Shown: positions 2,770 to 29,816 of the stretch, piece by piece
Position numbering within the stretch: the first letter of the stretch is position 1
How the letters are laid out: the number at the start of each line of letters is the position of its first letter
Source: Bryobacterales bacterium
GTDB lineage: Bacteria > Acidobacteriota > Terriglobia > Bryobacterales > UBA6623
Direction of reading: 5' to 3'
Length of the DNA stretch: 64,000 nucleotides
NCBI GenBank assembly: GCA_965204435.1
Contig: OZ241997.1
Span: 3,076,550 to 3,140,549 of the forward strand
Made by a program: the position numbers and the translations under genes
The notes under the pieces: generated by a model
Told to the model about the DNA's origin: nothing
The model's database searches: none
The model's input: only the letters and a program-made list of their open reading frames with translations

Positions 2770-2882
2770 CGCCACGCGGGCTACGTCCCGCGCAGAGTCA
2801 TCGCGCCGAAGTGGGCGCGCCCCACAGCGTTCGTGCGGAACAGAGAGGCCGCAGTCGGGCACCGGGTGGTAGTCTGGGACCA

Positions 2883-5174
2883 ATGTTCGCACGCCTATCC
2901 CCGAGATTCCTTTCCGCCGCCGCGGTCATCGCGGCGGTCGCCATCGCAGCCGGGTGCGGCCAGGCGCCGCCCGAAACCTCGATGGTGAGCCGCTTCGCGG
3001 CGGACGTGGACCAAGAACTGCCTTGGCCGGAATATCCGCGCCCGCAACTGGTCCGCAGCCGCTGGCTCAACCTCAACGGCCAATGGGACTATGCCCTTAC
3101 CGACAGGGGCGCCGCCCAGCCGGCAACCTTTGACGGGCAGATCTTGGTGCCGTTCGCAATCGAGTCGACGCTGTCCGGTGTCGGCCAAGCGCCCACGGAG
3201 GAGCAAACGCTCTGGTACAGGCGCTCGTTCGAGGTGCCCGCAGAGTGGAGCGGCGAACGCGTGTTGCTGCACTTCGGCGCGGTCGACTTTCACGCCTCCG
3301 TGTTTGTCAACGGCCAGCTCGCAGGCGAGCACAAGGGCGGCTACACGCCGTTCACCTTCGATGTCACCGACTTGCTGGCCGATGCCGGACAGCAGGAACT
3401 GGCCGTGTCGGTCTGGGATCCCACGGACACCTGGACGCAGGCGCGTGGCAAGCAGGTGCGCGAGCCGAGCGGGATCTGGTACACCTCCGTGACCGGAATC
3501 TGGCAAACCGTTTGGCTAGAGCCCGTGCCAAGCGCCGGCTCGATCGAAGGGCTGGATGTTGAATCCGACCGGGAGGCCGGCGCGGCGGCCCTGACTGTCC
3601 GCACGCGCGGGGACTGCGCCGATTGCGAGGTCCGGCTGACCGCCTATCTCGGAGACACCGCCGTGGCCGAGGCCGCCGGAGACTCCGCAACAGCGCTCAA
3701 GCTCGAGCCGAGCGATCTCCAGCTGTGGACACCCGACACGCCGGCACTCTACGACCTAGACATCGCCCTGCTGCAAGGCGACCAAACCTTGGACAGGGCC
3801 AGCAGCTACTTCGCCATACGGGACATCGCGCTGGGCCAGGACGAGCGAGGCTTCACGCGCTTGCTCCTCAACGGGGAGCCGATCTTCATGTTCGGCCCGC
3901 TGGACCAAGGCTGGTGGCCCGACGGCCTGTATACCGCGCCGACCGACGAGGCCCTGCAATACGACATCGAAGTGACCAAGATGCTCGGGTTCAACATGGC
4001 CCGCAAGCACGTCAAGGTCGAGCCCGCACGCTGGTACTACCATTGCGACCGGCTGGGCCTGCTGGTCTGGCAGGACATGCCGAACGGCAACCTGCGGCGC
4101 GGCTCTCCCAACAGCCTGCTGGTAGGCTCCACCGATGCCGAGGACGCGCAGCGCCCGGCCGATTCCGCGGAACAGTTCGAAGCCGAGCTGGCCGAGCTTG
4201 TCGACACGTTCAAGTTCTTCCCCTCGATCGTCATGTGGGTTCCCTTCAACGAGGGCTGGGGACAGTACGACGTGGAGCGCATCGACTCATTCGTGCGCGA
4301 GCGCGACCCGACGCGGCTGGTGAACGCCACCAGCGGCTGGACCGACCGCGGCATCGGCGACGTGTTCGACGCGCACATGTACCCGGGCCCGGGCATGGAG
4401 CGCGTGCCGGCCGACAGGGCCACGCTGCTGGGAGAGTTCGGGGGCCTCGGCTGGCCGGTCGACGGCCACCTGTGGTGGACGGACAAGCGCAACTGGGGCT
4501 ACCGCACCTATTTCAGCCGGGAGGACCTCAACGCCAAGTACCAAGAGGTCGTTGGCAACCTCGTCGGGCCGCGCGCGTTGGGACTAGCCGCCGCGATCTA
4601 TACCCAGACGAGTGATGTGGAGGGCGAAGTCAACGGCTTGATGACGTATGACCGCGCGCTGGTGAAGTTCGACGAAGAAAGCGTCAATGCGCTGCACGGT
4701 CGCATCTACGCGGCCGAAGGCGTTGCGCGTTCGCTGCTACCCACCTCCGAGCACGCGCCCCAACAATGGGAATTCCGGCTGGACGCGCCGCCGGACGATT
4801 GGACGGGTGGCGAGGACGGCGCCGGCTGGCAGGACGGGGCGGCACCGTTCCAGTCCGGCGACAATGCCAATTTCCCAACCGGCACTGTCTGGTCGGGCGG
4901 CCAGATCTGGTTGCGGAGATCATTCGAGCTCGAAGAGGTGCCCGAAAACCTCTGGATCGAGGCATACCACGCGATCGATCAGGGCGAGGTTTACCTCAAC
5001 GGCCAGCTGGTCCTCGATTTCGCCGGCACGCGGTCCGGCGGGAGGCACTATCACCACATGGATCTCAGCGCTCACGCGGCCGCGCTGCGCCCCGGCCAAA
5101 ACGTGCTGGCGGCCACCGGTGATTTCGCCGGGGGCCTGCGAGGCTTGGATTTCGGCCTGTACGCCGTCGAATAA
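2883..5174 (+). CDS. glycoside hydrolase family 2 enzyme (beta-galactosidase/glucuronidase-like) with an extra C-terminal sugar-binding-like domain
   Basis: Track ORF is 2811..5174. The ATG at 2883 gives a lipoprotein-type leader (MFARLSPRFLSAAAVIAAVAIAAGC). GH2 hallmarks are present: PWPEYPRPQL..W.NLNGQWDY, FGAVDFHASVFVNG, NMARKHVK, WVPFNEGWGQ. Confidence 0.85.
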   Translation: MFARLSPRFLSAAAVIAAVAIAAGCGQAPPETSMVSRFAADVDQELPWPEYPRPQLVRSRWLNLNGQWDYALTDRGAAQPATFDGQILVPFAIESTLSGVGQAPTEEQTLWYRRSFEVPAEWSGERVLLHFGAVDFHASVFVNGQLAGEHKGGYTPFTFDVTDLLADAGQQELAVSVWDPTDTWTQARGKQVREPSGIWYTSVTGIWQTVWLEPVPSAGSIEGLDVESDREAGAAALTVRTRGDCADCEVRLTAYLGDTAVAEAAGDSATALKLEPSDLQLWTPDTPALYDLDIALLQGDQTLDRASSYFAIRDIALGQDERGFTRLLLNGEPIFMFGPLDQGWWPDGLYTAPTDEALQYDIEVTKMLGFNMARKHVKVEPARWYYHCDRLGLLVWQDMPNGNLRRGSPNSLLVGSTDAEDAQRPADSAEQFEAELAELVDTFKFFPSIVMWVPFNEGWGQYDVERIDSFVRERDPTRLVNATSGWTDRGIGDVFDAHMYPGPGMERVPADRATLLGEFGGLGWPVDGHLWWTDKRNWGYRTYFSREDLNAKYQEVVGNLVGPRALGLAAAIYTQTSDVEGEVNGLMTYDRALVKFDEESVNALHGRIYAAEGVARSLLPTSEHAPQQWEFRLDAPPDDWTGGEDGAGWQDGAAPFQSGDNANFPTGTVWSGGQIWLRRSFELEEVPENLWIEAYHAIDQGEVYLNGQLVLDFAGTRSGGRHYHHMDLSAHAAALRPGQNVLAATGDFAGGLRGLDFGLYAVE

Positions 5175-5191
5175 GGAGGCCGGTCGAAGGC

Positions 5192-6670
5192 TCAGTCGGC
5201 CAAGCGGCCCAAGGGACGGGTGTCGCCGCGCAGGCCGTTGCTGAAGGACTGCGCCTGCCTGGTGAGCCGTGCGACCACGTCCGGATGCTTGTCCGCAACG
5301 TCGCGCGATTCGCTCGGATCCCACTGGATCTGGTACAGTTCGCCGGGCACGATCTTGACGCGCTCGCCGTCAGACTCGGTCCCGAGGTGCAGCTTCCACG
5401 GGCCATCCCGCACTGCGCGCAAGAGCGGATTGTTTTCCGGGGGGCCGTCTTCAGCCCGGTAGCGGAAGGCGCCCTCGAAAAAGTACAGCGTCTCGTGCCC
5501 GCTGGCCTTGTCCGGAGAGGACCATAGCGGCTCCAAGTCGCGGCCATCGATCGTGCGATCCCGCGGTGGTTCGCCGCCGGCCAACTGCGCCAAGGTCGGC
5601 AGGATGTCCATCACGGAGGCGACCTTCGACGAGACCAGGCCCGCCGGGATGCGCCCGGGCCAGCGCAGGATCGCCGGGACCCGGATGCCGCCCTCGTATA
5701 CCGTGCCCTTGCTGCCGCGCAGCAGGCCCGCCGAGCCCGAATCGATGCCGTAGCCGGACCACGGTCCGTTGTCCGAGGTAAAGATGACCAGCGTTTGCTC
5801 GTCGAGGCCCAGTTCTTCCAGAGTGTCCAGCAAGCGGCCGGTGTGGTGGTCGATCTCCTCGATCACGTCGCCGTACAGGCCGCGCAGCGACTTGTCGCGG
5901 AACGCCCGGCCGCGGAACAGCGGAACGTGTGGCATGGTGTGCGCGATGTAGACGAAGAACGGCCCTTCGCGGTTCGCGCGGATGAACTCGATGGCCCGGT
6001 CCGTGTAGGCCGCGGTCAGCAGTTCCTGGCGCGGGTTGTGCTCGATGACGCTTCCGTTCTCGATTAGCGGCAGGGGTGGGAACCAATCGAGCGGGTAGGT
6101 TTCATCGGACTGCGCATAGCCTGTGTAGGCCGTGCGCTCGCGGGTGTAGCGCATGCGCTCGCCTTCATCGGGACGCCGTTCGATCTTGGGGTGGAACGGC
6201 CACATGTCATTGGAGTAAGGGATGCCATAGTAGGTGTCGAAGCCGTTGCGTGTCGGCAGGAACTCAGGCGCGTCGCCTAGGTGCCACTTGCCCAGCATGG
6301 CGGTGGCGTAGCCGCGGTCGCGCAGCAGTTCGGCAATGGTCACCTCGTTCGGGTGAATGCCCGTGCGCGCTCTCGGGATGTGGTTGAACATCAGGCTGTT
6401 GCGCGGCGGATAGGTGCCGGTCATCAAGGCTGCCCGGGCCGGGCCGCAAAACGGCTGAGCATAGTAGTCCGTCAGGCGCAGGCCCTCGGCGGCCATGCGG
6501 TCGATGCGGGGCGTGCGGATCGAGGGGTGGCCCTGCACTCCCAGGTCGCCATATCCTTGGTCGTCAGTCATGATGACCACGAAATTCGGCAGGTCGACGG
6601 CCGCCACCGGCACCTGCACAGCGACAGCAAGCCCGGCGAGCGCGGTAAGCAATGGAAGTGCGCGCGTCAT
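5192..6670 (-). CDS. arylsulfatase (formylglycine-dependent sulfatase family)
   Basis: 492-aa ORF with a signal peptide, then PNFVVIMTDDQGYGDLG and the CxPxR formylglycine motif (FCGPARAALMTG). Confidence 0.9.
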   Translation of the reverse strand: MTRALPLLTALAGLAVAVQVPVAAVDLPNFVVIMTDDQGYGDLGVQGHPSIRTPRIDRMAAEGLRLTDYYAQPFCGPARAALMTGTYPPRNSLMFNHIPRARTGIHPNEVTIAELLRDRGYATAMLGKWHLGDAPEFLPTRNGFDTYYGIPYSNDMWPFHPKIERRPDEGERMRYTRERTAYTGYAQSDETYPLDWFPPLPLIENGSVIEHNPRQELLTAAYTDRAIEFIRANREGPFFVYIAHTMPHVPLFRGRAFRDKSLRGLYGDVIEEIDHHTGRLLDTLEELGLDEQTLVIFTSDNGPWSGYGIDSGSAGLLRGSKGTVYEGGIRVPAILRWPGRIPAGLVSSKVASVMDILPTLAQLAGGEPPRDRTIDGRDLEPLWSSPDKASGHETLYFFEGAFRYRAEDGPPENNPLLRAVRDGPWKLHLGTESDGERVKIVPGELYQIQWDPSESRDVADKHPDVVARLTRQAQSFSNGLRGDTRPLGRLAD

Positions 6671-6907: not shown

Positions 6908-8113
6908 CTATGGCTTGCTCGCGATCCGCGCCAGCCGATTCCCCGTCCGAACCACGAAGGACGCGTCCGCGGCTGCCACCCCGTAGACCCGACCCTCGGT
7001 GCTGAGCCGGTTCGTGGCCACGATCTCGCCACTGGACTGGGACAGGACTGCAGCCGTTCCGTCGACACCGAAAAAGTAGAGGCGTTCTCCGTCCGTGATC
7101 CCGGTCGCCCAGCATCCGGACGGAAGCCGCTTCGTCGAGATCTGCTCTCCCGTGCGCAGGTCCAGTTCGAAGAGGACGCCGACAGAATTGACGAGCCACG
7201 CGCGCCCTCCGGCGATCAGGGGAGAGCTGAACTCGGTCGTGGCCTTGTCAGCCGTCCAAAAGGTCGCGTTCGGGGTATCCAGTCGGAATGCGTGCGTCCC
7301 GCCAGCGTCACCCGCGCCGATCACGATCAGGCTCCCGGCCACGCCGGCCGACGGAACCGCATATCCGCGGCCGCCTCGCGCCGGACGCCGGAACACCTCC
7401 TCGCCGTTGTTCATGTCGTGCGCCGCCGCTCCGCCCCCGGCGGTTGTCAGCAACAGCGAGCGTCCCCCGTGCTCGATCGTCACGGGCGTTGAGAAGGACG
7501 GGGCCGGAGGCAGCCCCCGCACCCAAACATCGCGGCCGTCTTCGGCGGCGATCGCGTATAGGCGCCCCTCTCCGAACGGAGCAACGTGCAGGAAGAGACG
7601 GTCCCCGGACAGCACGGGCGAGCCGCCGATACCGTGGCGCCCGACCCAGTCATCGCCGCTCCGGGCCAGGTATCGAGCCCAGCGCTCCCTCCCAGTGTGG
7701 TCCAGCGCGACCAAGTCGCCACTTTCGAAGAACGCATAGATGCCATCCTTGTCCGCAACGGGCGTGGGCGCGGCGTTCGACATGCGCTCGTGCGCGTCCG
7801 TGGGCGCAGAAGACGGCCTCCGGTCCATCCACTCCAGTTGGCCGTCCGAGAGCCGGTACGCCGCAACCACCAAGGTCTCCTTGCGGCTGCCCACCGTGGA
7901 AGTGACGTACACCGTGCCGCCCCGGATGACCGGACTCGACTGTCCGTAGCCCTCGAGGCCGACAGACCAGGCCACGTTGGAGTCGTCAGACCAAGCCACG
8001 GGCAGGTCGCGAGCCGAGGTGACGCTCGATCCGTCTCCTCGGAATCCAGGCCAGCTGTCGCCGGCCAGCAGGCGGGCCGCCATCAGGGCAGCGAGGGGAA
8101 TCGCTTTTCGCAT
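6908..8113 (-). CDS. secreted PQQ-like (BamB-type) beta-propeller repeat protein
   Basis: 401-aa ORF with a signal peptide, then WPGFRGDGSS and repeated ...G.VYV.. / DG..LW blades. It starts 9 nt after the upstream receptor's stop. Confidence 0.75.
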   Translation of the reverse strand: MRKAIPLAALMAARLLAGDSWPGFRGDGSSVTSARDLPVAWSDDSNVAWSVGLEGYGQSSPVIRGGTVYVTSTVGSRKETLVVAAYRLSDGQLEWMDRRPSSAPTDAHERMSNAAPTPVADKDGIYAFFESGDLVALDHTGRERWARYLARSGDDWVGRHGIGGSPVLSGDRLFLHVAPFGEGRLYAIAAEDGRDVWVRGLPPAPSFSTPVTIEHGGRSLLLTTAGGGAAAHDMNNGEEVFRRPARGGRGYAVPSAGVAGSLIVIGAGDAGGTHAFRLDTPNATFWTADKATTEFSSPLIAGGRAWLVNSVGVLFELDLRTGEQISTKRLPSGCWATGITDGERLYFFGVDGTAAVLSQSSGEIVATNRLSTEGRVYGVAAADASFVVRTGNRLARIASKP

Positions 8114-8122
8114 CGTCGGCCC

Positions 8123-11011
8123 CTAGAAGCTCAGTCGCAGCGAGAGCTGGAACTGGCGCGGCTCGTACGTCCTTACGGACTGGCCGAACCGCCCGTCACC
8201 GAGGTTGTTGATCGGCTGCTGGTAGTTCACCCGGTTCAGGATGTTGAAGGCCTCCACCCGGAACCGGACGTTCATGCTTTCCCCAACCAGGACCTCCTTC
8301 TCCAACGTCACATGCAGGTCAAAGTAGGAGGGGCCCAGTTCGGAGTTGCGGGCCAGCGAGCCCACGGTGCCGGCTGCCGGCAGGATCTGGTCCGGGGTCG
8401 CGCCTTCGGCCAGCCGGAACTGCACGCTGCCCATGGGCGAGCGATCAATCGTCCCCGCGACATCGTTGATCCGGTTGATCCGCGAGCCGTTCGGATTGTC
8501 CGTGTTCGAAAGGAGCGAGAACGGGCTGCCGCTGCGCGCCCACAGGAGCGTGCCGACCTGCCAGCCTCCCAGCAGGCGGTTTCGCCGGGCGAACGGCAGT
8601 TCGTAGGTGCCGAAGGCGGTCAGGATATGCGGCTGGTGGAAATCGGCGAACGAGCGATCCACATTCCAGTCGGACTGGTCGGTCGGCACGGCGTTGGAGC
8701 TCGAGGCCACGTCGATGGTCCGCGAGAAGGTGTAGGCCAAGCGGTACGAGAGGCCTCGCCCCAAGCGCGCCCGGATCGAAGCCTGCAGGGCGTCGTAATC
8801 CGAGTACGCGCCGCCGGTCAGGTAACTCACCACGCCGCGGCTGGGGTCGGGTCGAAACGGCGCGCGCAGGTTCGGCCCGCCGTTCGGCAGGGAGGTCCTG
8901 GCCAGCTTGAGCCCCCGGTTCCCGACGTAGGCAATACTCCCGACGGAACCGATGCCCCACAACTGGCGCTCGATGGTGAGGTTCCAGTTCTGCACGTAAG
9001 GGTTGACCAACCCGCGGTCCAAGACGTATTCATCGGAACCGACCCGGGCACCCTCTAGGGGGTCGGGCAACCTGGGCCGGAACCGGGAATAGGTCGTGAC
9101 ACTTGGCGGCGCGAACCGCGACTGGGCGATGAAGCCCATCTGCAGGGGACTGAAGAAAAACCCGTAGCCGCCGCGCAGGACTGTCTTGTCGTTCCCGCCT
9201 ACGTTCCATGCGAAACCGGCCCGAGGTGCGATGTTGTTCGGATCGGAGCCGTAGTCCTGCTCGAGCCGGCCGTACTTGTCGCCCGGAACGCCGTAGAACT
9301 CATAGCGGACGCCCAGATTGAGCGTCAGGCTGGGGGTGACCCGCCAGTCGTCCTGCGCATAGAGGCTGAATTCGTGGTTGCGCTGGTCGATGCGCGAGTC
9401 GCCGAATGCGCGGGAGTAGATCAGCGGCTGCCCGCCCAGGAACGCCCCGATCGAGGGGAAGATCATCAGCCCGTTGAAGTTGCGGTCGCTGATGGAGTTG
9501 TATTGGATGTGACGTCCGATCACTCCCGCTTTCAGCGAGTGCTTGCCGGTAACCAAGGTGAAATCGTTGGAATAGGTGTAGTTGTGGAAGCGGGTCTGGG
9601 TCAGCGGAATGAACGTGCCCAAGCGGGGCAGGCCGGTCACCAGAATGACTCCCGCCTGTCCGTTGATCGCCGGATCACCCAGGGAGGGAGTGCCGGGGCT
9701 GACATGCGCGTAATAGGTCGAGTACGTCCCGCGGAACTGGTTGAACGCCCTCCGGGACAGGGACGACTCCAAGCTGACGACGGCGGAGCGGGAGAAGTTG
9801 TCGGTGCTCGCGTTGCCGGCGGGGAGGCGAGACCGCGTCGGGCCGATCGCGTTGACCCAGTTGCCCCTGGCGCCGAGTCGGTGCCGGTCGCCGGGCTGCC
9901 AATCGAGCCGGAGCAGTCCTGTCTGGCTAGTCTGCGGACTCGGCACTGCCGCGCTGTGAAGGTTCGTTCCCGGAACGTTCGGCTCCGGGTAGTGCTGCAG
10001 CAAGGCGCGGACGCTCGGGGCAGCCCTCGCGCGCTGTTCGGGAGTCAGCGTCTGGACCGTCGACGAGGCGCGGTACTGGTTGCGCACGCCAAGCTCGTAT
10101 CCGCCGTAGAAGAACAGGGAGTTGCGGCGAATCGGCCCGCCCAGCGTGACGCCGGGCATGTTGAGCCGTCGCTCCGGGCGCTGGGAGAGCAATGCCCCGC
10201 GCGCGTTCAGTTTCTCGTTCTGAAAGAAGTGATAGGCGGATCCGTGCCACTCGTTCCCGCCACGCTTGGTGACGAGGTTGACGACCGCCCCGGAAGCCCG
10301 ACCGAACTCAGCCTTGAAGTTCGACGTCTGGATCTCGAACGCCTCGACAGTCTCCATCGAGACAGGCTGCTCGGTCAGTCCTCGCCCGAGCAGGTTGCCG
10401 GCGACCGGATCGTTGTACTCGGCAGAATCGACCATCGTGTTCACGGCGCCGAGCGGGCGGTTGCCGTTGACAGTGAACGGCGCGTGGCTCGACCGCGCGA
10501 AGCCGACGCCGGGAGTCTGGTAAGAGATGGCCCGATAGTTCCGTCCCACGTTGTTGGCCACCATCGGGATGCTGGCGACCTCCGGCGGCGCATAGCTGGA
10601 GCCGCGCACCCCGCTGGAGGCGACCCGCTCGATTTCGGCGAAGGAGCCGACCACCGTGATTTCCTCGGAGACGGTGCCGAGTTCGAGGCGGATGTTGTGC
10701 ACGACCTCCTGACCGGCGACCAATTGAATGCTCTCGGCTTGGTAGGCCCGGAACCCTTCCTTCTCAGATACCAGCCTGTAGGAGCCCGTGTCGAGGCCGG
10801 CCAGCCGATAGAGTCCGGCGCCAGAGCTGAGGGACTCCGTAACCGCTCCCGTCCGCAGGGATTCGAGCGCGACAGGCGCGTCGCCGACAGGCGCTCCCGA
10901 CGGATCGAGAACCGTTCCAGTCAGCGTGGCAGATCCGACCTGGGCGCTTGACTGGCCAGTGCCGAACAGGCACAAGGAGATGAGGATTGCTGTGCGAATT
11001 ATCGTCTTCAT
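8123..11011 (-). CDS. TonB-dependent receptor with an N-terminal carboxypeptidase-regulatory-like domain
   Basis: 962-aa ORF with a signal peptide, then ATLTGTVLDPSGAPVGDAPV...GSYRL. The long beta-barrel body ends in the aromatic terminal ...LSLRLSF. Confidence 0.9.
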   Translation of the reverse strand: MKTIIRTAILISLCLFGTGQSSAQVGSATLTGTVLDPSGAPVGDAPVALESLRTGAVTESLSSGAGLYRLAGLDTGSYRLVSEKEGFRAYQAESIQLVAGQEVVHNIRLELGTVSEEITVVGSFAEIERVASSGVRGSSYAPPEVASIPMVANNVGRNYRAISYQTPGVGFARSSHAPFTVNGNRPLGAVNTMVDSAEYNDPVAGNLLGRGLTEQPVSMETVEAFEIQTSNFKAEFGRASGAVVNLVTKRGGNEWHGSAYHFFQNEKLNARGALLSQRPERRLNMPGVTLGGPIRRNSLFFYGGYELGVRNQYRASSTVQTLTPEQRARAAPSVRALLQHYPEPNVPGTNLHSAAVPSPQTSQTGLLRLDWQPGDRHRLGARGNWVNAIGPTRSRLPAGNASTDNFSRSAVVSLESSLSRRAFNQFRGTYSTYYAHVSPGTPSLGDPAINGQAGVILVTGLPRLGTFIPLTQTRFHNYTYSNDFTLVTGKHSLKAGVIGRHIQYNSISDRNFNGLMIFPSIGAFLGGQPLIYSRAFGDSRIDQRNHEFSLYAQDDWRVTPSLTLNLGVRYEFYGVPGDKYGRLEQDYGSDPNNIAPRAGFAWNVGGNDKTVLRGGYGFFFSPLQMGFIAQSRFAPPSVTTYSRFRPRLPDPLEGARVGSDEYVLDRGLVNPYVQNWNLTIERQLWGIGSVGSIAYVGNRGLKLARTSLPNGGPNLRAPFRPDPSRGVVSYLTGGAYSDYDALQASIRARLGRGLSYRLAYTFSRTIDVASSSNAVPTDQSDWNVDRSFADFHQPHILTAFGTYELPFARRNRLLGGWQVGTLLWARSGSPFSLLSNTDNPNGSRINRINDVAGTIDRSPMGSVQFRLAEGATPDQILPAAGTVGSLARNSELGPSYFDLHVTLEKEVLVGESMNVRFRVEAFNILNRVNYQQPINNLGDGRFGQSVRTYEPRQFQLSLRLSF

Positions 11012-11057
11012 GGTTTCTTCCTTTCCATTGCTGTGCCACGCGGAGGGTTCCGCACGG

Positions 11058-14000
11058 CTAGGGCTGCTTGCGGAGTCTTAGGCCGATGAGAAGCGCTGTT
11101 CCCAAGACCGCCAACCCCAGCAGCAGCCAACTGTCGAGACCGCTGCTGTCGGATTCGGGCGCGGAACTGTCCTCGCTGGTCCGAACGAGCCTGCGGCCTT
11201 GGACGATCTCGGCCCCCGCCAAGCCTGCGCTCCGGTCGACAGAGCTCTGGTAGGAGGTCAGGATCGTGGCGCCTTCGACATTGCCCGGCGCCGTCAGGGC
11301 TTGACCCAGAAATTCCTGGAACGCGGCGTTGTCAACGGTCCGGGAGTCCCCGGCCGGTCCGTAGTCCGCGACCGAGAGCGCGTACCGATTCGCGACGCGG
11401 CGAAGGGTCTCCTCGTCAGCGTCCCAGTAGCCCTTGCGAGCGGCCTCGATCAGCACGGCGGTCACGTTCTGGAGCGCGTACGGGTTCTCCTGATCGAACC
11501 ACTCGGGAATACCCAGCTCCAAGGAATCCTCCACGTAGACCCGCTCGACCTCGTCCCAGACGTAGTCGTCGATCGCCTCGGGCTTGGTAACCTGCCAGCC
11601 GAACAGGTTGGTGGCGGTTTGCGAGATCTCGACCGCTCCGGAGAATCCCTCCTCTTGCTGCTCCCGGATCCAGCGCGGGTTCCAATACTTGCCGCGCAGG
11701 TCGCGGGTCAGCGTCTCCCGAACGGTCTCCAAGCGGCCGCGCTCGACGTCGCGCACGTCCGAGACATAGGTCTCCGGCGACGTGCCGGTTGTGTCGCGCA
11801 CGGCCATGGTCATGCCCCCGAGATACTCGAAATAGTGATCCAGCGTCAGCGGGCTGATGACGTTGGTGGAGCGGCTTAGGGAGACGGCCTCGGTGCCGGC
11901 CAGGGCCTGCGCGTAGAGTCCCTCTACGTTCGCGCCCCACTCGGCGCCCTCTGTGTAAACCGCTCCGACCCGCGCCAGGTACTCCTCGGTCAGCCCCGCG
12001 GTGTCCTCGAAGTCGCCACTGCGGATGGTGTTGTCGATAACGCCCGTGCCGTAGCCCCCGACGTTGTTGCTGAAGACCCGAGCGCCGGCGTACAGCCGGG
12101 CGTCCTCGGCCGACATTCCGGCGCGCTTCAATGCGATCTGCGACTCCTCGACGTGATCCGCGATGAAGTTATCGCCGTCCGCGGCCGCGGCAGCCAGCCG
12201 GACCGCCTTGTCCAGGAACTCCATGCGGTCCGGGAAGGTGTCCCGGAACAGGGAGGCCGCCTGGATGACCACGTCGATCCGGGGCCGGCCAAGTTCCTCG
12301 ACCGGCACCAGATCCAAGTCGGCGACGATCCCGTTGTGGTCCCAGACCGGGCGCACGCCGATCAGGTGCAGGATCTGCGCCAAGTCCGTGCCGTAGTGCC
12401 GGATCAATTCGGTGTTCCAGAGCGTGAAGCCGATCTTCTTGGGGTAGCGCCCGAGCCGTTCCCGCTCGGCATCGAGGAGCGCATCCGCCAGAGACACCCC
12501 GACCTCCCACGCGGCCCGCGTGGGCACCTCCTGGGGGTTGATGCCGTACAGGTTGCGGGCAGTCGGAAGCGCCGCGGGGTTCCGGACCGGATCGCCGCCC
12601 GCGCCGGGAGGGATGTAGCCGCCCTCCAGGGCGTGCAGCGTCTGGGGGATCTCGCGAGAGGTGAGCCGCAGCGACGCGAAAATAGTCCTGACTCGGTCCT
12701 CGTCCGGACGCAACGCCGCAGCGACCCGTCGACCTTCCAGGGCTGCCTCGACATGACGGACAGCTCTCTGCTTGGCAGCCTCCCAGCGCGTGCCACTCTC
12801 CACCTGCAGCCCCATCTCGTCCGAGGCCACGCGTCGGACGTAGTCGCTGCCGACCATCGATGTCACCAGCTGAGCCGCCTCGCTGGCAGGATTGTTCTGG
12901 GAATGAACATGCAGCCCGAGCGGAATCCGGTCCTCGTTGATCAGGTGGATGTGGAGCTTCAGCTCGGCAACTTCCTCGTCCGTCGGCAGCCTCTCGGTCC
13001 AGTCGAGGCCCAGATCCTCGTCCAGCGCGCGGGCCTTGCCTAGCTTGGCGATCTGCTCGCGCAAGCGCTCCTTCAGGCTGCCCTCCTCCTGGTCGACGAA
13101 CTGCTCGGCCGCGCGGTACAGCTCGCCGATTTCGGGATCGGCCTCGGACAGCGAAGCCGCCCCGATGGGCGGGACTTGGTGGTCGACGGTCACGGCCGAG
13201 CCCCTGCGCTTGGCGATCAAGGCCTCGCCGACGTTGTCCATTATGTAGACGTAAATGTTCGGCATGCGCCCGAGCGTGATGTCGGACCAGTCGTCGGCGA
13301 GCTGCCCGAGCGGGCGCCCCGGCAGGAACTCGTGCGTCCCGTGCGTGCCGTAGTTGACGATCGCGTCAGCTTCGAACTCGCGCTGCAACCACCAGTACGC
13401 AGCCAGGTACTGGTGGTTCGGAGGCACCCGGTCGTTGTGCTGGAGTCGGGCGTCCATGTTGGCGCCGCGGGCCGGCTGCGGCATCAGGATCACGTTGCCG
13501 AACTCGAGCTTGGGCAAGACGAGCTGCCGGCGGCCGTCTCGCTCGACCGTCATGAACTGGCCCGGGGGCGGGCCGAACGAGCCGACAACCTCCTCGCGCA
13601 AGGCCTCGGGCAGGGACGCGAACCAATCCAGATAGTCCGCTTCGTCGATCAGGGAGACGCCTTCGAGGGAGGCCAGTTCCTCGAGTTCCCCGCGCTGGCT
13701 CTCGCTGATGTTGCGCCCCTTGTGCAGCATCTCGGCCAGCAGCGCGTCCGCGTCCGATACGAGGCCTTCCACGCCGTAGCCCGCCTCCTGCATGCCCCTG
13801 AGGAAGCGGATCAGGCTCCTGGGAACGTTCAGGCTGGCCGCAGTGATCTTGCCCTTCCCGATACCCGCGACATAGATGATTGCGACCTTCTTCTCGGAAT
13901 TGGGCTTGGCCCGCAGCCGGACCCAGCGCAGGGCGCGGTCGGCCAGGCGGCCGATGCGCTCCCGCTCCACGGCTTCGAAGCGGCGGCCGGTCCATTCGGC

Positions 14001-15005
14001 ACGCATCCCCTCGATCAGGGTCGGCTCGATCGCCCCGTCGATCTCGGGCACGATCGCTCCCATGGCGAGGCCGACCCCGCGGAGCCCGTTCTTGGTCTGG
14101 CGGTACTCCTCGAAGGTCTCGCCGGTAAACATCAGCGACGCACCCCGCATGACCGGGATGTCGAACTCGGATTCGAGCAGCTCGACGCCGCGCGGGCCTT
14201 GGAACCAGCGGCCATGGCGCCGCGAGATCACCAGGTCGGGCCGGAACTCCCGCACGAACTGCGGCGTCTTCTGGCCCCCGAAGATCGCGGCGACGTTCGC
14301 GCCTCGGGCTTCGAACGCCTCCAGCAAGGCACCGGTTCCGGTCGTCATGCCGAGCCGCCAGCCATCGGCGAAGTCCAGCAGGATGCGGGGTCCCGACTCG
14401 CGGTGCCGTCCCGACTCGCGCATCCATTGGACGTACTCCTCCGTCGACAGCATCAGGTCGGGAGCCTCGGGGTGGTAATAGCCGTCCTCCGGCGTGGGCT
14501 GAGGATCCTCGTAGGGCTCGCCGCTGCCGAGGTAGTGACTGGCCGCGTACCGGAACAGGTTGGCCATGTTGCGCGGCCCGCTGTGCTCCCAATACGCGCT
14601 GACCTGCTCGGCGTGGGCAGGGTTTCCGTGGCTGGCTAGGAGCCGGTTGTTCCGATCGGCTGGGACGAAAAACACCCCGGCACCTCGCGCAGCAGCTGCG
14701 GCCAAGCCGTCTTGGACAGGCCGCGTCAGCGGCTCCATGCGGCGACTCGAGATGAAGATCGCGTCGTAGCGGGAGAAGTCGGCCGTCTCAAGCTCCGGGT
14801 CGTCCATTTTTTCGCGCGACCAGAACCAAAAGCGGATGCCGGTAGCATCGGCGGCATCGGCTAGCAGGAACAGCTGCTGAGGGGGCACGCCGAGGAAAAG
14901 CATCTTCGGCATCAGCAGGTGGTAGGCAACGCCCCCTGCCAAGAACAGCGCGGCCGCCACGGCGGCGAGCCACTTCAAGAGTTTCCTGTGTCGAGGCGTC
15001 ATCAC
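11058..15005 (-). CDS. CobN/Mg-chelatase large-subunit-like protein (HmuS-like) with hydrophobic helices at both termini
   Basis: 1315-aa ORF with size and blocks typical of CobN/ChlH (..NYGTHGTHEFLPG.., ..GGYIPPGAGGDPVRNP..LPT.RN.Y, ..TLWNTE..). Its GTGATG start overlaps the upstream stop. Confidence 0.8.
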   Translation of the reverse strand: MMTPRHRKLLKWLAAVAAALFLAGGVAYHLLMPKMLFLGVPPQQLFLLADAADATGIRFWFWSREKMDDPELETADFSRYDAIFISSRRMEPLTRPVQDGLAAAAARGAGVFFVPADRNNRLLASHGNPAHAEQVSAYWEHSGPRNMANLFRYAASHYLGSGEPYEDPQPTPEDGYYHPEAPDLMLSTEEYVQWMRESGRHRESGPRILLDFADGWRLGMTTGTGALLEAFEARGANVAAIFGGQKTPQFVREFRPDLVISRRHGRWFQGPRGVELLESEFDIPVMRGASLMFTGETFEEYRQTKNGLRGVGLAMGAIVPEIDGAIEPTLIEGMRAEWTGRRFEAVERERIGRLADRALRWVRLRAKPNSEKKVAIIYVAGIGKGKITAASLNVPRSLIRFLRGMQEAGYGVEGLVSDADALLAEMLHKGRNISESQRGELEELASLEGVSLIDEADYLDWFASLPEALREEVVGSFGPPPGQFMTVERDGRRQLVLPKLEFGNVILMPQPARGANMDARLQHNDRVPPNHQYLAAYWWLQREFEADAIVNYGTHGTHEFLPGRPLGQLADDWSDITLGRMPNIYVYIMDNVGEALIAKRRGSAVTVDHQVPPIGAASLSEADPEIGELYRAAEQFVDQEEGSLKERLREQIAKLGKARALDEDLGLDWTERLPTDEEVAELKLHIHLINEDRIPLGLHVHSQNNPASEAAQLVTSMVGSDYVRRVASDEMGLQVESGTRWEAAKQRAVRHVEAALEGRRVAAALRPDEDRVRTIFASLRLTSREIPQTLHALEGGYIPPGAGGDPVRNPAALPTARNLYGINPQEVPTRAAWEVGVSLADALLDAERERLGRYPKKIGFTLWNTELIRHYGTDLAQILHLIGVRPVWDHNGIVADLDLVPVEELGRPRIDVVIQAASLFRDTFPDRMEFLDKAVRLAAAAADGDNFIADHVEESQIALKRAGMSAEDARLYAGARVFSNNVGGYGTGVIDNTIRSGDFEDTAGLTEEYLARVGAVYTEGAEWGANVEGLYAQALAGTEAVSLSRSTNVISPLTLDHYFEYLGGMTMAVRDTTGTSPETYVSDVRDVERGRLETVRETLTRDLRGKYWNPRWIREQQEEGFSGAVEISQTATNLFGWQVTKPEAIDDYVWDEVERVYVEDSLELGIPEWFDQENPYALQNVTAVLIEAARKGYWDADEETLRRVANRYALSVADYGPAGDSRTVDNAAFQEFLGQALTAPGNVEGATILTSYQSSVDRSAGLAGAEIVQGRRLVRTSEDSSAPESDSSGLDSWLLLGLAVLGTALLIGLRLRKQP

Positions 15006-15400
15006 TCCCCCATCGCGGAGGGCACACCCTCCGGCACGTACACGACTTCCCCGCTCTCCAGCCGGTAGGCCACGCCTAGGCGCGTGCCCCTTCCCGCCCC
15101 TCGCAGCTCGGAAGACTCGAGCTTCTCCATGCGCTCGCCGCGCTTGACGATCATTTCCATGTCCGGCTTTCCTGGATTCGTCACGATCGTGATGTCCTTC
15201 TGGCTCATTCGCGCCGCGATCTCGGCGAGGCTGTCCGCGCCAGCGAGAGCCAGCAGCAGGGCGACCACGAGGACCATCGACGCATCAAAGAGGTTGACCA
15301 CGCCGACGAGCGGGTCGCCGGATCCGCCTGCGCCAGCAAGCGGATCAGCTGCCGAGTTCCAGTCCCGCAGCCGCGAGCGCTGCGGTCGATTGCTGTCCAT
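15002..15400 (-). CDS. DUF2149-like single-pass membrane protein (ExbD/TolR-like architecture)
   Basis: Track ORF is 15002..15421. The ATG at 15400 has GAGGAG 9 nt upstream. It encodes one TM helix (VNLFDASMVLVVALLLALAG) followed by a roughly 70-aa soluble domain. The stop overlaps the CobN-like start. Confidence 0.65.
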   Translation of the reverse strand: MDSNRPQRSRLRDWNSAADPLAGAGGSGDPLVGVVNLFDASMVLVVALLLALAGADSLAEIAARMSQKDITIVTNPGKPDMEMIVKRGERMEKLESSELRGAGRGTRLGVAYRLESGEVVYVPEGVPSAMGE

Positions 15401-15986
15401 ACACTTGCTCCTCTTCTTCACGCCAACGCTCGAGCAGGAACCGGATCTCGATCAAGTCCGCGCGTCCCCAGATCCTCGTGATGGTTCCAAGCCCGAACGC
15501 AACCCCGCCGATCACCAGGCCGATCACAGTCGTGGTGAATCCCAGCAGCAGGTTGGAGGCCATTTGCTGCATGTTTCCCTCGGCAAGCCCCGCAAGAGCG
15601 GGTTGCAGGGGAATGAGCGTGCCGATCAAGCCCAGCATCGGACCCGCCCGGGACACGATCGAGAGTTTTTCGATCCGGGCACGCAGGGCCGTCTCGATGT
15701 CGGTGACCTGCCTGTCGACGAAAACGCTTTGGAGTCCATGGGCTTCCAGCGCGCTCCGCACGGCCCCGAACCGGCCTCGCCACGGCTGCAGCAGGAACCC
15801 GTCCAGGGACAATCCCTCCTCCCGGCAGGCGGCCAGGCTGAATCGATTGGCGCGCCGGTCGACAGCCTCGGAGAGCAACTGCCCGACGAGGTAAGTCATG
15901 CCAACGAACAGTGCGAGAACGGCAACCAGCGTGGGCACGAGGAACGCGCTGGAGAGGGAGTAGAGGATTCCCGACAGGACTTCCAT
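15345..15986 (-). CDS. MotA/TolQ/ExbB proton-channel family protein
   Basis: 213-aa ORF with a three-TM pattern and the family's C-terminal block (SRAGPMLGLIGTLIPL...NLLLGFTTTVIGLVIG). Confidence 0.85.
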   Translation of the reverse strand: MEVLSGILYSLSSAFLVPTLVAVLALFVGMTYLVGQLLSEAVDRRANRFSLAACREEGLSLDGFLLQPWRGRFGAVRSALEAHGLQSVFVDRQVTDIETALRARIEKLSIVSRAGPMLGLIGTLIPLQPALAGLAEGNMQQMASNLLLGFTTTVIGLVIGGVAFGLGTITRIWGRADLIEIRFLLERWREEEEQVYGQQSTAALAAAGLELGS

Positions 15987-16007
15987 CGCTGGTTACGCCT
16001 AGGGGGG

Positions 16008-16667
16008 CTAGTAGGACCTTGTACGGCGGGCGACCAAGAACGAGAGGCCAACCATTAACGCAACAATGCCGAGAACGGAGAGCGACTCGACCCAGTCGAT
16101 GTGCTGGGCCAAGATTCGCGGGGTCTGTGACTGGTGCGGAAGCAAGACCAGCAGCAGGGCGCTCATATTCGACGCCGCGGCAAACCCCAGCGCGGCGCCG
16201 ACGCTCGCGCCACGCCTGGCCCGGCGGCGGGCTGCAAACGCAGCGCCAAGGACGACCCCGCCATAGACGGACATGACCGAAACTCCGGCCAAGAACCCCG
16301 GCAGGTTGGACCACCGAAGGGCCTGCCAAGTAGCGGCACCTGCCGCGTAGAGCAGCAGCGGCGACGGGATCGCGAACAGCCACCCAGACCGCGATTGGGG
16401 ACGGCTCGATCGCCTCGCTCGCTCGAACAGGATCCACAAGAGGCCGTGCACGGCGATCGCGGCGGCCCATGCGGAAGGCTCGTTGACGAGCGCCCGCGCT
16501 TCGGCTTGCGACAATCTCTCGGCTAGGAGGCCGAGAATCGCGCCGGCAGCAAGCAATGACGTCGCATACGCCAAGCGCAAGCCGCGATTTCGAAACGCGG
16601 CCAGCCCTAGGGAATCTCTCGCGGCGAACAGTCCCAATGCAAGCAGAATTAGCAGCAACCAATCCAC
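16008..16667 (-). CDS. polytopic membrane protein of unknown function, first gene of the CobN-like operon
   Basis: 219-aa ORF that is almost entirely hydrophobic helices. It ends 21 nt before the MotA-like gene. No recognisable motif. Confidence 0.6.
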   Translation of the reverse strand: MDWLLLILLALGLFAARDSLGLAAFRNRGLRLAYATSLLAAGAILGLLAERLSQAEARALVNEPSAWAAAIAVHGLLWILFERARRSSRPQSRSGWLFAIPSPLLLYAAGAATWQALRWSNLPGFLAGVSVMSVYGGVVLGAAFAARRRARRGASVGAALGFAAASNMSALLLVLLPHQSQTPRILAQHIDWVESLSVLGIVALMVGLSFLVARRTRSY

Positions 16668-16880
16668 GACGCGCCCAATCTGCTGATGCTAGGGAAATCG
16701 GATTCGAATTCCGAGAAATACCCGGCAAGCAGGTACGTTTCGCTCGCCAGCGGCGCTGAATTTCGCGCTAGCGGGCCTTCCCGAGCCTCGCGAGCCGCGT
16801 CTGTCGAGCAAGCCGCAAACGACTGATCGACAGGTCTTTAGTTTCGCGCGGCGCGGCCGCAGCGCGATCCTGCCGGAGTT

Positions 16881-17489
16881 CTAGCCGGGCGGGCGCAGGT
16901 GACGGTCCAGTTCGCCGGAGAGCTGCCGGATCGCCTGCTCGGCCGCGGCGCTGAGGCCGGCAACCACGGAGCGCACCTCGCTAGCGGACACCTGCTCGTT
17001 CTTCTCGGCCGTGCCGGCCCAAACCACGCGCGCGGTCGCGGATTCAACTAGCTCGAGCGAGATTTCGACGGCGGCCCGCACGCCGCCGCCGTGGTCTATC
17101 TCCTCGAGACGCCGCAACTCCCCGCGCAGCACGTAATCCGCGGCCGTGCGGCCATCGAAGTGGTCCAGGCGCGCGAACGTTCCCAATGCCAGCACCTGCT
17201 CGCGCAGGGCGCGTGAAACGCTTTCCTGCGGATCCTCGGCCCAGCGGTGGTACTCGTAGTAGCCCACTTCCACCGGGGACTCGCGGTAGATGATGCGGCC
17301 TTGGCGAATCACGCCGCCCACCCGGATGGGCATCAGGATAGCGGTGTGTTCCAGCGGTGCAGCAGCCGGGGCCAAGGCCGGCAGGTCGAGCACGTAGTAG
17401 TTGGTTGGCGGCACGGCACCGCCACATGCCCAACACGCCACGGCGAGGCAGGCCAGGCCCAACCGCCGTCGCTGGAGGGCAAGTTTCAT
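16881..17489 (-). CDS. ABC-type transport auxiliary lipoprotein (PqiC/YmbA, DUF330-like)
   Basis: Track ORF is 16881..17552. The ATG at 17489 gives a lipobox leader (MKLALQRRRLGLACLAVACWACGG). This is followed by NYYVL and YYEYHRWAE, characteristic of the family. Confidence 0.7.
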   Translation of the reverse strand: MKLALQRRRLGLACLAVACWACGGAVPPTNYYVLDLPALAPAAAPLEHTAILMPIRVGGVIRQGRIIYRESPVEVGYYEYHRWAEDPQESVSRALREQVLALGTFARLDHFDGRTAADYVLRGELRRLEEIDHGGGVRAAVEISLELVESATARVVWAGTAEKNEQVSASEVRSVVAGLSAAAEQAIRQLSGELDRHLRPPG

Positions 17490-28360: not shown

Positions 28361-29701
28361 CTAGTCGCGCTCGTCCAGCAAGTACGCCGAGCCCTTGCCG
28401 GTCCCCTGCCAGGCGTAGAACAGGAGCAGGTCGTCCACGCTCTGGCCGTCCTCGCCGCGCACGAACTTGACGCTCTGGTAACGCAGTCCGTTCTTGGGCG
28501 TCAGGTCGCGGGAGCGCTTCCAGTGGGCGCCGGAAACGTCAGAGACCCATTCCTCGACGCGGTCGCCCCAGCCATAGCTGTTCATGAGCGTGTCCTCGTT
28601 CGCCTCGCCGTCGCCGGCGATCAAGAAGGCCTGGAAGGACCCGTCCGGGCGCGCTACCAAGTGAGTCGAGTTGAACGGGTGCCCGGTTCCCGTCAGGGCT
28701 GTCTTCTCCCACTTGCCCGCGCGCAGGCGGACGAAATAGAAGGTCGAAGCGTAGGGCGTCTCGCCCGATACCGGCAGCAGGAAGTTCGGCTCGCCGCCCG
28801 GACCGAGTGCGATCGAGGGGCCCACGGACGCACTGCCGCCTTCTGTATCCAGCACCAAGCAGTCGCGCTGGGCGCTTGCAAAGTTCACAGGCCTGGCGAG
28901 TTCCTTGCCGTGCGCGTTGAAGACCTTCCCGCTTTCGAGGTCGGCCCGGACATAGTAGAGGTTGTGGCGCCGGGTGTAGTCATGCAGCACTGATCCGTAG
29001 CGCTGGCTCGAGATGGGCTCCTCGACCTTCCAAATGAAGGCGATGTGCAGGGCGCTCCCGTCTGCGGTCACCCGTGTCGTCTGATACGAGCCGGCGTGGG
29101 ACGCCAGCGGCGACTCGTGCGGGGGCGCGTCCATGTCGATCACCGGGCTGGCCGGCTCGTCCCAAGTGCGCCCCCCGTCGGCGGAGGTGCGATAGGTCCA
29201 GAAGCCCAAGTGGCCGCTCTCGCGGAAATAGACAAGCGTCCTGCCATCGGCGAGACTGTGGACTTGCGGATAGGACACTGACTGCGAGATCTCGGCGAGC
29301 CGCTCCCATGCGTCCGTCGAGCCGGGCCGCTTCGTCGCTAGGTGGTAGCCCGGGGTGCGATGGAAGCCGAAAGCGACGTGCACGCGGCCGTCCGGGTCGG
29401 CCCACACCACCGGTGCGTAATGCTGGTCCCGCTCGAAGCGCTGGGCATCGATTTCGATGCCGGTTCCGGACAGCAGCATGCGGGGCTCGGAGAACTTGCG
29501 CGCGGCGAGGTCATAGGAGCGGATCCAAGGCAGCCCCTTGTCGCCGCGCCAGACCATGTGCAGCTCGCCCTGGCTGACAACCGCTTGAGGATACATGCGG
29601 TTGTCATAGAGCATCTTCAGCGCTCCGTCTCCGGCGAAGCGCGCAACCTGGGCTGCCAACGGGCAGCCAGCCAGTAGCAACGTGAACAGGAGCGGCCTCA
29701 T
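28361..29701 (-). CDS. secreted BNR-4-like (sialidase-fold) repeat protein
   Basis: This is the C-terminal 447 codons of track ORF 28361..30121. The ATG at 29701 gives the leader MRPLLFTLLLAGCPLAAQ. The body has repeated S.DGGRTW-type elements (TSADGGRTWDEP), whereas the upstream 140 codons of the track ORF look non-protein-like. Confidence 0.7.
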   Translation of the reverse strand: MRPLLFTLLLAGCPLAAQVARFAGDGALKMLYDNRMYPQAVVSQGELHMVWRGDKGLPWIRSYDLAARKFSEPRMLLSGTGIEIDAQRFERDQHYAPVVWADPDGRVHVAFGFHRTPGYHLATKRPGSTDAWERLAEISQSVSYPQVHSLADGRTLVYFRESGHLGFWTYRTSADGGRTWDEPASPVIDMDAPPHESPLASHAGSYQTTRVTADGSALHIAFIWKVEEPISSQRYGSVLHDYTRRHNLYYVRADLESGKVFNAHGKELARPVNFASAQRDCLVLDTEGGSASVGPSIALGPGGEPNFLLPVSGETPYASTFYFVRLRAGKWEKTALTGTGHPFNSTHLVARPDGSFQAFLIAGDGEANEDTLMNSYGWGDRVEEWVSDVSGAHWKRSRDLTPKNGLRYQSVKFVRGEDGQSVDDLLLFYAWQGTGKGSAYLLDERD

Positions 29702-29816
29702 GAGAGCATCCAGCATAGCCCGGCCCCGAGAACCGCGCAAATCCAACGGCAGCACGCCCTGAATCGCGAGCTCATGCCGCGCCATGAGAGAAAACAGTTC
29801 CCCCGAATACCTCCGG

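Follow-up and report, generated by a model that had tools for sequence, protein, structure and literature searches.

Chelatases of the CobNST and ChlHID/BchHID types insert metal ions with the help of AAA+/VWA partner subunits and ATP. The question raised by the locus described here is what a protein of the CobN type may be doing in an operon where its neighbours are membrane-channel genes and an outer-membrane receptor. The locus lies in a 64,000-nucleotide stretch of DNA (the window) from a Bryobacterales bacterium of the phylum Acidobacteriota (contig OZ241997.1, positions 3,076,550 to 3,140,549 of the forward strand) and consists of six minus-strand genes, which we call T, U, V, S, R and P in their order within the operon (Table 1), S being the CobN-type protein. 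In its make-up this operon resembles the haem-uptake and iron-stripping (Hmu) system of Bacteroidota, of which it appears to be a relative with the genes rearranged. An earlier note, made from the letters of the window, had described it as an hmu-like operon in which a chelatase is tied to a proton channel; the observation is confirmed and its interpretation is partly supported.

The six genes are tightly packed, and the junctions were all found as that note gave them when the open reading frames (ORFs) were checked: a gap of 21 nt between T and U, an overlap of 56 nt between U and V (with V read from the ATG at 15400), a GTGATGA stop/start overlap between V and S, and gaps of 46 nt between S and R and 9 nt between R and P. 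The V/S overlap is conserved in orthologues, and these two genes are probably coupled in translation. The start codon of T is confirmed by a conserved (A/G)TGGATTGG in orthologues. The CobN-type chelatase, MotA_ExbB and DUF2149 domains that had been proposed for S, U and V are matched above cut-off by the Pfam profiles. Among the approximately 46 large ORFs scanned across the window (those below about 200 amino acids were not scanned), there is no AAA+/VWA chelatase subunit of the CobS/CobT or ChlI/ChlD type; such partners are clearly visible at a Cupriavidus CobN locus used for comparison. HmuY (PF14064), which is readily found in comparison loci, has no match in the operon proteins or in the other scanned ORFs. 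Genes of the cob/cbi, hydrogenase, urease, Ni/Co, TonB and ExbBD kinds are likewise missing from these ORFs. The earlier note is borne out on the lack of an AAA+ partner and of HmuY among the scanned ORFs, on the altered gene order and on the terminal propeller gene. At the Cupriavidus locus (L071, 8001-18792) cobW lies between two tandem CobN-type genes, and MoxR-type AAA+ and VWA genes come after them; even with these AAA+ neighbours, the first of the two CobN proteins bears a hydrophobic helix at either terminus.

The evidence for a relationship to Hmu comes mainly from S. This protein matches CobN-Mg_chel over its full length (989 bits, Pfam) and is annotated in public records as 'cobaltochelatase subunit CobN', but it scores below every NCBIfam CobN/BchH equivalog cut-off (NF004644, 837 against 1248; TIGR02025 (BchH), 633 against 829). 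A phmmer search of the PDB with S ranks HmuS of B. thetaiotaomicron, the haem dechelatase that turns haem into protoporphyrin IX and Fe(II) (9d26, 612 bits), above CobN of M. tuberculosis (431) and ChlH of Synechocystis (426). The nearest relatives outside the Bryobacterales share approximately 30% identity over 99% of the length and are encoded in canonical operons of the order hmuY, TonB-dependent receptor (TBDR), S, T, U, V. In neighbour-joining trees, whose topology is indicative only as bootstrap values were not read out, the Bryobacterales S clade is sister to the HmuS clade, followed by other U/V-linked S proteins, then CobN and then ChlH; S is hence placed beside HmuS from hmuY-R-S-T-U-V operons and not among cobalamin-pathway CobN proteins. 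Identity between S and HmuS is only about 30%, and at least 50% was the criterion for a bona fide HmuS in Nath et al. (PMC12583661).

Hydropathy analysis of S detects hydrophobic helices at residues 13-31 and 1293-1311, each with positive charges flanking it on the outside. Both terminal helices are present in every U/V-linked S protein examined and in the Cupriavidus CobN pair, and the C-terminal helix is missing from ChlH and most CobN proteins. As there is a membrane anchor at each end, the bulk of S should face the periplasm. HmuS is likewise anchored at both ends and periplasmic (PMC12583661, PMC13227078). Key residues of HmuS, as defined by Nath et al. (PMC12583661), have equivalents in S: H264 corresponds to His-254, H555 to His-538, E594 to Glu-577 and H1057/E1060 to the His-1209/Glu-1212 dyad, the last within the active-site motif LTLDHYFEYLGG. 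H264 sits in an invariant HGRW motif that aligns with AH254GR of HmuS, in which the histidine is a ligand of haem at site 1; the HGR histidine is for the most part a feature of the HmuS and Bryobacterales clades, no CobN or ChlH has it, and the S proteins of Trichlorobacter (Geobacter) lovleyi and Runella lack it too. The motifs GTH555GT and LTLDH1057YFE1060YLGG are invariant in the Bryobacterales clade, and the HmuS counterpart motif is LSLDHxxEFMGG. A DHxxE motif is found in HmuS, in the Bryobacterales clade and in Azospirillum, with the histidine retained in ChlH, as against DDxxQ in the structurally characterised CobN proteins (7c6o, 9uk9) and in the S proteins of T. lovleyi, Runella and Pseudoalteromonas. 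The comparison covered residues 1053-1064 of S, the TM-anchored CobN-like proteins of L078, L079, L080 and L082, and the metagenome loci L086-L161. It is possible that this difference is a sequence marker of substrate class.

The neighbouring membrane proteins point in the same direction, and with S they uphold the description of the locus as hmu-like. U belongs to MotA_ExbB (PF01618, 35.7 bits against a Pfam cut-off of 22.9), shares 28% identity with Bacteroidota HmuU along its entire length (BLASTP, E 6e-21) and has transmembrane (TM) segments at 16-34, 117-135 and 146-164. V is a DUF2149 protein (95.9 bits, Pfam), 43% identical to Bacteroidota HmuV (BLASTP, E 7e-28), with a predicted topology of cytoplasmic N-terminus, single TM segment and beta-rich periplasmic domain. 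The earlier claim of an ExbB/ExbD-like channel holds for U; V was not shown to be ExbD-like by profile comparison or structure. In the V family alignment N36 and L37 are invariant, F38 and D39 are near-invariant and a C-terminal G.G.R.G.AY.L..G..YVPE is conserved. The membrane residue Asp39 lies in an NLFDxxMVL motif that resembles PFIDIMLVLL of the T. lovleyi ExbD, and V is like ExbD only in this motif and in topology: hhalign of the DUF2149 alignment against the T. lovleyi ExbD detected no relation, a profile search of the PDB with V returned nothing relevant, and the AF2 model of V (pLDDT 51.7) is too low in confidence for fold comparison.

T resembles HmuT in position, size and polytopic nature, with five hydrophobic segments in a hydropathy scan and approximately seven long helices in the model. 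The sequences can barely be aligned: BLASTP of T against HmuT finds only a 51-amino-acid C-terminal stretch (E 3e-4), and hhalign is not significant (E 0.013-0.087). There is a full-length but sub-threshold match of T to DUF2162 (27.8 bits against a Pfam cut-off of 34.4), a marginal hhalign match to the DUF2162 protein of T. lovleyi (E 5e-4) and no significant hhalign match to the NicO-like protein of Runella. The T family is tiny and restricted to one clade, with 44 representatives among 1.84 billion proteins in an exhaustive profile search, and DUF2162 was touched by 5 of the 32 representatives scanned. Residues R17, D18, P101 and G128 are invariant. The AF2 model (pLDDT 60, pTM 0.54) had no Foldseek match in the PDB with E < 0.9, and nothing relevant on DUF2162 or on hmu-like loci in Acidobacteria was found in the literature.

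The outer-membrane component is of a different kind. R consists of CarboxypepD_reg and an OMP_b-brl_4/TonB barrel (Pfam) and has a signal peptide, a TonB-box-like strand (EEITVVG) and a C-terminal Phe. A role for R as an HmuR-type haem receptor was rejected for lack of HmuR orthology and of the haem-receptor boxes. R is one of three receptors of this domain structure in the window; the others lie at 30212-33397 and 54365-57763, and the former adjoins a BNR/sialidase-like gene (28361-30121), in a stretch of lower GC content (0.605-0.62). P matches PQQ_2 (87 bits, Pfam) and has a Sec-type signal peptide without a lipobox Cys.

Conservation of the gene set was examined by scanning one genome per species for relatives of S and by a tblastn survey with the six window proteins. 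All 68 S-relative loci are from metagenome-assembled genomes (MAGs) of Bryobacterales/Acidobacteriota, the nearest being 97% identical, which confirms that the source is an acidobacterium, as had been suspected. Several of the closest MAGs (those named RHO3_bin and SB066x_bin) are presumably derived from sponges. All six genes, T-U-V-S-R-P, are found together in 15 orthologous loci, whose S is 76-97% identical, and in L020 (S 56%). T-U-V-S-R occurs without P in L017-L019, L033, L048, L061 and L062, and is retained down to 54-56% S identity; L015 and L057 have T-U-V-S alone. Chance adjacency of these genes is ruled out by the conserved synteny. The conserved core is T-U-V-S-R, and P is accessory, because P is absent from several loci that have the other five genes. 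P adjoins R in both arrangements, following it in the orthologues and in L020 and preceding it in L068 (P-R-T-U-V-S). Downstream of R in loci without P, only a small ORF of approximately 117 amino acids is conserved, in three MAGs from lakes.

Table 1. Features of the operon (window coordinates) and related Bryobacterales loci (coordinates within each locus).
Feature	Position	Strand	Description
T	16008-16667	-	219-aa polytopic inner-membrane protein in the HmuT position; weak DUF2162 member
U	15345-15986	-	213 aa; MotA/TolQ/ExbB-family proton-channel subunit, HmuU homologue, 3 TM
V	15002-15400 (ORF 15002-15421)	-	132 aa from ATG 15400; DUF2149 single-pass protein, HmuV homologue
S	11058-15005	-	1315 aa; HmuS-like class I chelatase homologue, TM helix at each terminus
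R	8123-11011	-	962-aa TonB-dependent outer-membrane receptor, acidobacterial CarboxypepD_reg + OMP_b-brl_4 type
P	6908-8113	-	401-aa exported PQQ_2/BamB-like beta-propeller; accessory, linked to R
Imperfect palindrome TCGGAATTCGAATCCGA	16698-16714	.	31-47 nt upstream of the T start codon; weak candidate for an operator or promoter element
Orphan S loci	e.g. L029 9986-13894; L024 9914-13765		L021-L032, L034-L043, L046-L047, L049-L056, L058-L060, L064
Stand-alone U-V pairs	L073 8415-9381; L074 8424-9393		U 51-53% and V 65-77% identical to those of the window

The S-U-V core is not special to Acidobacteriota and is widespread beyond Bacteroidota and Bryobacterales. On plasmid pGLOV01 of T. lovleyi (L078), a TBDR is followed by DUF2162, MotA/ExbB, DUF2149 and CobN genes, after which come canonical ExbB, ExbD and TonB genes and another TBDR; upstream of this cluster are two cobalamin riboswitches in tandem (2152-2343 and 2444-2618 of L078; 107 and 65 bits). 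The absence of CobS/CobT from the T. lovleyi cobN cluster (pSZ77) was noted in 2012 by Wagner et al. (PMC3403914). In Runella slithyformis (pRUNSL01; L080, 2557-10591), a TBDR, a NicO/DsbD_2-like gene, U, V and S lie between hypB/F and hypC/D/E, a context which suggests that one branch of the family serves nickel supply. S-U-V of Azospirillum brasilense lies beside an iron-type ABC importer and a TBDR, Pseudoalteromonas has the order U-V-S, and L075 has HmuY-T-U-V-S. We also scanned metagenomes with the DUF2149 alignment, counting loci flanked by 5 kb or more on each side in a sample biased to gut Bacteroidota. All 24 such loci encode U and a CobN-like S in one orientation, 7 of them in the order U-V-S. 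The placing of the channel genes first, which the earlier note held to be distinctive, is therefore common: a U-V-S or T-U-V-S order recurs in T. lovleyi, Runella, Pseudoalteromonas and L075 and in 7 of the metagenomic loci. Across Pseudomonadota, Thermodesulfobacteriota, Bacteroidota and Acidobacteriota, CobN-fold proteins with two anchors are almost always accompanied by MotA/ExbB and DUF2149 genes, and it is the TM-anchored branch as a whole that lacks an AAA+ partner.

Compared with the hmuYRSTUV operons of B. thetaiotaomicron and P. gingivalis, the Bryobacterales operon has in common a CobN-fold protein nearest to HmuS with TM anchors at both ends, the equivalents of His-254, His-538, Glu-577 and His-1209/Glu-1212, neighbouring HmuU and HmuV homologues, a polytopic protein in the HmuT position, a TonB-dependent receptor and the lack of an AAA+ partner. 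It differs in phylum, in order (T-U-V-S-R-P as opposed to Y-R-S-T-U-V), in having no HmuY, in its added propeller and non-orthologous receptor, in the lack of Met-79 and of the methionine-rich insertion, in an S of only about 30% identity and in a T that scarcely aligns with HmuT. The T. lovleyi SZ cluster (pSZ77/pGLOV01; PMC3403914) shares the T-U-V-S order with a receptor, a CobN-type protein with two TM anchors and the lack of CobS/CobT, but it has two cobalamin riboswitches, corrinoid genes, DDxxQ, no HGR histidine and an extra ExbB-ExbD-TonB set, and its receptor precedes T whereas that of the window follows S. With CobNST and ChlHID/BchHID, S shares the six-domain CobN/ChlH fold and the superfamily-wide HxGxHG and GE motifs, and with ChlH also an active-site histidine; those enzymes are cytoplasmic, soluble and ATP dependent, whereas S is TM anchored and predicted to be periplasmic, with no AAA+ partner nearby and with sub-threshold equivalog scores. 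With ExbB-ExbD-TonB, TolQ-TolR and MotA-MotB the common features are a family member with three TM segments (U) and, in V, the topology and an Asp near the cytoplasmic end of the helix; the differences are that V has no detectable ExbD homology, that there is no TonB-like partner and that the constant genomic partner is of the CobN type.

Our preferred reading, held with slightly better than even confidence, is that the Bryobacterales operon encodes an Hmu-type import system followed by stripping of metal in the periplasm, with haem or another metalloporphyrin as the most likely substrate. R would bring the metal-tetrapyrrole into the periplasm, perhaps with the assistance of P. S, tethered to the inner membrane at both ends, would bind this substrate and remove the metal, rather than insert it, in its central cavity, using His555 and His1057/Glu1060, the residues that HmuS uses; the products would be the free metal (Fe2+) and the porphyrin. 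U and V would form a proton-driven membrane module of the MotA/ExbB type, probably co-translated with S, and T may move one of the products across the inner membrane. Haem or a porphyrin is favoured because there is no riboswitch, the site-1 histidine of HmuS is kept and S has the DHxxE motif. The published biochemistry of the family (PMC12583661, PMC13227078) also speaks for the preferred reading. No Rfam family, riboswitches included, was detected at gathering score across the window, nor at E up to 1 in 16500-17000, and the positive control, the T. lovleyi locus, gave both of its riboswitches.

A number of observations weigh against this reading. Relatives of the same architecture lie in corrinoid (T. 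lovleyi) or apparently nickel (Runella hyp) contexts, so that the substrate cannot be told from the architecture by itself. The operon also lacks three defining features of bona fide HmuS operons, namely Met-79, the methionine-rich insertion and HmuY. Met-79, a site-1 haem ligand of HmuS, is replaced in S by an invariant Arg (S-x-R-R), with a Met at the +1 position only in the closest S orthologues. The methionine-rich insertion of domain IV is absent, the equivalent stretch being 100 amino acids long with 2 Met, as against 165-382 amino acids in the HmuS clade and 9-16 Met in its Bacteroidota-type members; S has 27 Met overall and no more than 4 in any 60-amino-acid window. R shows only a generic TBDR similarity to HmuR (28 bits) and is not orthologous to it, and the FRAP and NPNL boxes of haem receptors are absent from R. 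The Rfam and E. coli-type Fur box searches gave no regulatory element responsive to iron, haem or B12, and the latter yielded no box upstream of T that was better than shuffled controls in 25 loci. Only a small number of characterised enzymes underlie the proposed contrast between DHxxE and DDxxQ. In vitro, purified HmuS works with NADH and needs none of T, U and V (PMC12583661). In addition, the genes can be found apart. A second S paralogue occurs in Bryobacterales genomes as an orphan (53-58% identical), in which the TM anchors are retained together with HGR and DHxxE, and none of T, U, V and R adjoins it; a miaB-like radical-SAM gene and a bifunctional-nuclease (BFN) gene come after it in L024 and L029, the two loci examined, and the same genomes also carry the operonic copy (for example L006 and L032 in OZ241924.1). 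Stand-alone U-V pairs (MotA_ExbB with DUF2149) are present in housekeeping neighbourhoods of Bryobacterales with no T, S or receptor, and Mesle 2023 (PMC10100974) described Bacteroidota loci with R-T-U-V in which no S was detected. Coupling of S to U/V is not obligatory, as these stand-alone pairs, orphan S genes and R-T-U-V loci indicate.

What U and V do is the part of the proposal for which the strongest alternative exists. The published activity of HmuS in vitro needs NADH or a reductant, and HmuU/V have been assigned to the powering of HmuR (PMC12583661); a review proposes an inner-membrane transport role for HmuT/U/V (PMC12094164). The earlier claim that S works by proton-motive force rather than ATP was, in the light of this activity and this assignment, overstated. 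We favour a role for U/V in serving S, such as helping it to load its substrate or to release a product in a compartment free of ATP; the alternative is that U and V, possibly with T, energise R only, in the manner of a TonB system, while S acts independently. The published model for Bacteroides HmuU/V (PMC12583661, Fig. 1 legend) is of this second kind, and it accords with the membership of U in the MotA/ExbB family, the TonB-box-like segment of R in a window whose scan gave no TonB or ExbBD genes, the stand-alone Bryobacterales U-V pairs and the activity of HmuS in vitro without T, U and V. It sits less easily with the lack of detectable ExbD homology in V and with the lack of a TonB-like protein in all clusters except that of T. 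lovleyi, where T-U-V are not simply a receptor energiser because a complete ExbB-ExbD-TonB set adjoins them. Moreover, V tracked S in all 24 of the metagenomic loci and R was detected in only 8, although the test for R was insensitive, and Azospirillum and the loci L076 and L077 carry S-U(-V) with no receptor directly adjoining it. A service to R alone is possible but, in our view, rather unlikely. The comparative data, that is, the 24 loci, the predicted coupling of V to S and the separate ExbBD-TonB set of T. lovleyi, tend to favour a functional link of U/V with S. That U/V drive S directly by proton-motive force is plausible, but we put it forward only tentatively. With the same reserve, S-U-V might be a periplasm-facing (de)chelatase found across phyla, in which a U/V stator replaces the AAA+ ATPases (ChlI/ChlD, CobS/CobT) of the cytoplasmic class I chelatases and proton-motive force is coupled, through the anchors of S, to the conformational cycle of this protein; the Bryobacterales version would then be specific to haem or porphyrin, and DHxxE or DDxxQ would mark porphyrin as opposed to corrin or other substrates.

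The substrate could also be a corrinoid or a cobalt chelate, imported by R, with S inserting or removing cobalt or remodelling corrinoids. A role of this kind has been proposed for the cobN cluster of T. lovleyi pSZ77, with its R-T-U-V-S order among corrinoid genes and behind two cobalamin riboswitches (PMC3403914), and for the hmu-like operons of Bacteroidota with cobalamin riboswitches (Mesle 2023, PMC10100974), and the public annotation of S as CobN would agree. However, the window has no cobalamin riboswitch even at permissive settings, and among the 18 sources scanned (the window and 17 loci) the only one bearing a riboswitch was T. lovleyi, whose S is of the DD type. S itself has DHxxE, as do HmuS and, for the histidine, ChlH, and not the DDxxQ of CobN and of the T. 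lovleyi S; it keeps the site-1 histidine that the latter lacks, it is phylogenetically nearer to haem-type HmuS, and it has no cob/cbi genes among the scanned ORFs around it. We consider a corrinoid system improbable.

Slightly less probable again is a chelate that is not a tetrapyrrole. R would then import a complex of Ni, Co or another metal with a metallophore, S would strip it in the periplasm and T would carry the ion inward. The Runella cluster, in which a NicO/DsbD_2-like gene takes the position of T amid hyp genes in a nickel-insertion context, is what such a system might look like, and the iron-type ABC importer and TBDR beside S-U-V in Azospirillum could be read similarly. The Runella S, however, is of the DD type and has no HGR histidine, unlike the S of the window, where the scan found no hydrogenase, urease or Ni/Co genes; and, to our knowledge, every characterised member of the CobN/ChlH fold acts on tetrapyrroles. 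Finally, we find it very improbable that S is the large subunit of an ordinary biosynthetic cobaltochelatase or Mg-chelatase, and we conclude that S is not a biosynthetic CobN or ChlH: its full-length CobN-Mg_chel domain and CobN annotation would allow it, and AAA+ partners could lie elsewhere in the genome outside the 64 kb, but the equivalog scores are far too low, the two anchors imply the periplasm, where ATP is absent, the gene is embedded in conserved synteny between membrane-channel genes and a TBDR, and its clade is that of HmuS.

Apart from the Hmu system, no route is known by which anaerobes release iron from haem and leave the ring intact. The literature treats this system as confined to Bacteroidota or as characteristic of them (PMC10100974, PMC12094164). 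New here is an Hmu-type system in Acidobacteriota that lacks HmuY, Met-79 and the methionine-rich insertion and has a non-orthologous receptor and an added propeller. A conserved, rearranged, HmuY-less version in Bryobacterales would extend the stripping of iron from haem to free-living Acidobacteria. Comparison with the Bryobacterales S would also separate features of HmuS that are dispensable (Met-79 and the methionine-rich insertion) from those that are kept (His-254, His-538 and His-1209/Glu-1212), and DHxxE as against DDxxQ offers a candidate marker of substrate class. The function of HmuT/U/V, and with it the power source of a class I chelatase homologue outside the cytoplasm, becomes a testable question.

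Less can be said of the regulation of the operon. The palindrome upstream of T is present, 2 nt away from the 16696-16712 given in the earlier note. L001-L004, L010, L012 and L016 preserve it, in L014 it is degraded, and L005-L009, L011 and L013 lack it; the close orthologues that bear it conserve the entire intergenic region. As it is not kept beyond close orthologues, it is not evidence for an operator, and we rejected it as a conserved one. One sigma-70-like site and three terminator-like sites in the operon region are at or below chance expectation. The sigma-70-like site (11027-10998 on the minus strand, TGGAAA-18-GATAAT) begins in the S-R gap and reaches the opening codons of R. R and P might be transcribed from it as an internal promoter, but a single site is about as many as chance would give (0.6 expected).

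The surroundings of the operon are dense in sulfatases and glycoside hydrolases (GH2, GH32 and alpha-L-fucosidase; 2811-6670, 25945-27786, 45546-47084 and 52314-53906), a set that is consistent with a lifestyle of degrading sulfated glycans. A DDE transposase ORF of 638 amino acids (48343-50259) adjoins a swing in GC skew and a drop in GC content from 0.68 to 0.615, and this region may be an insertion element.

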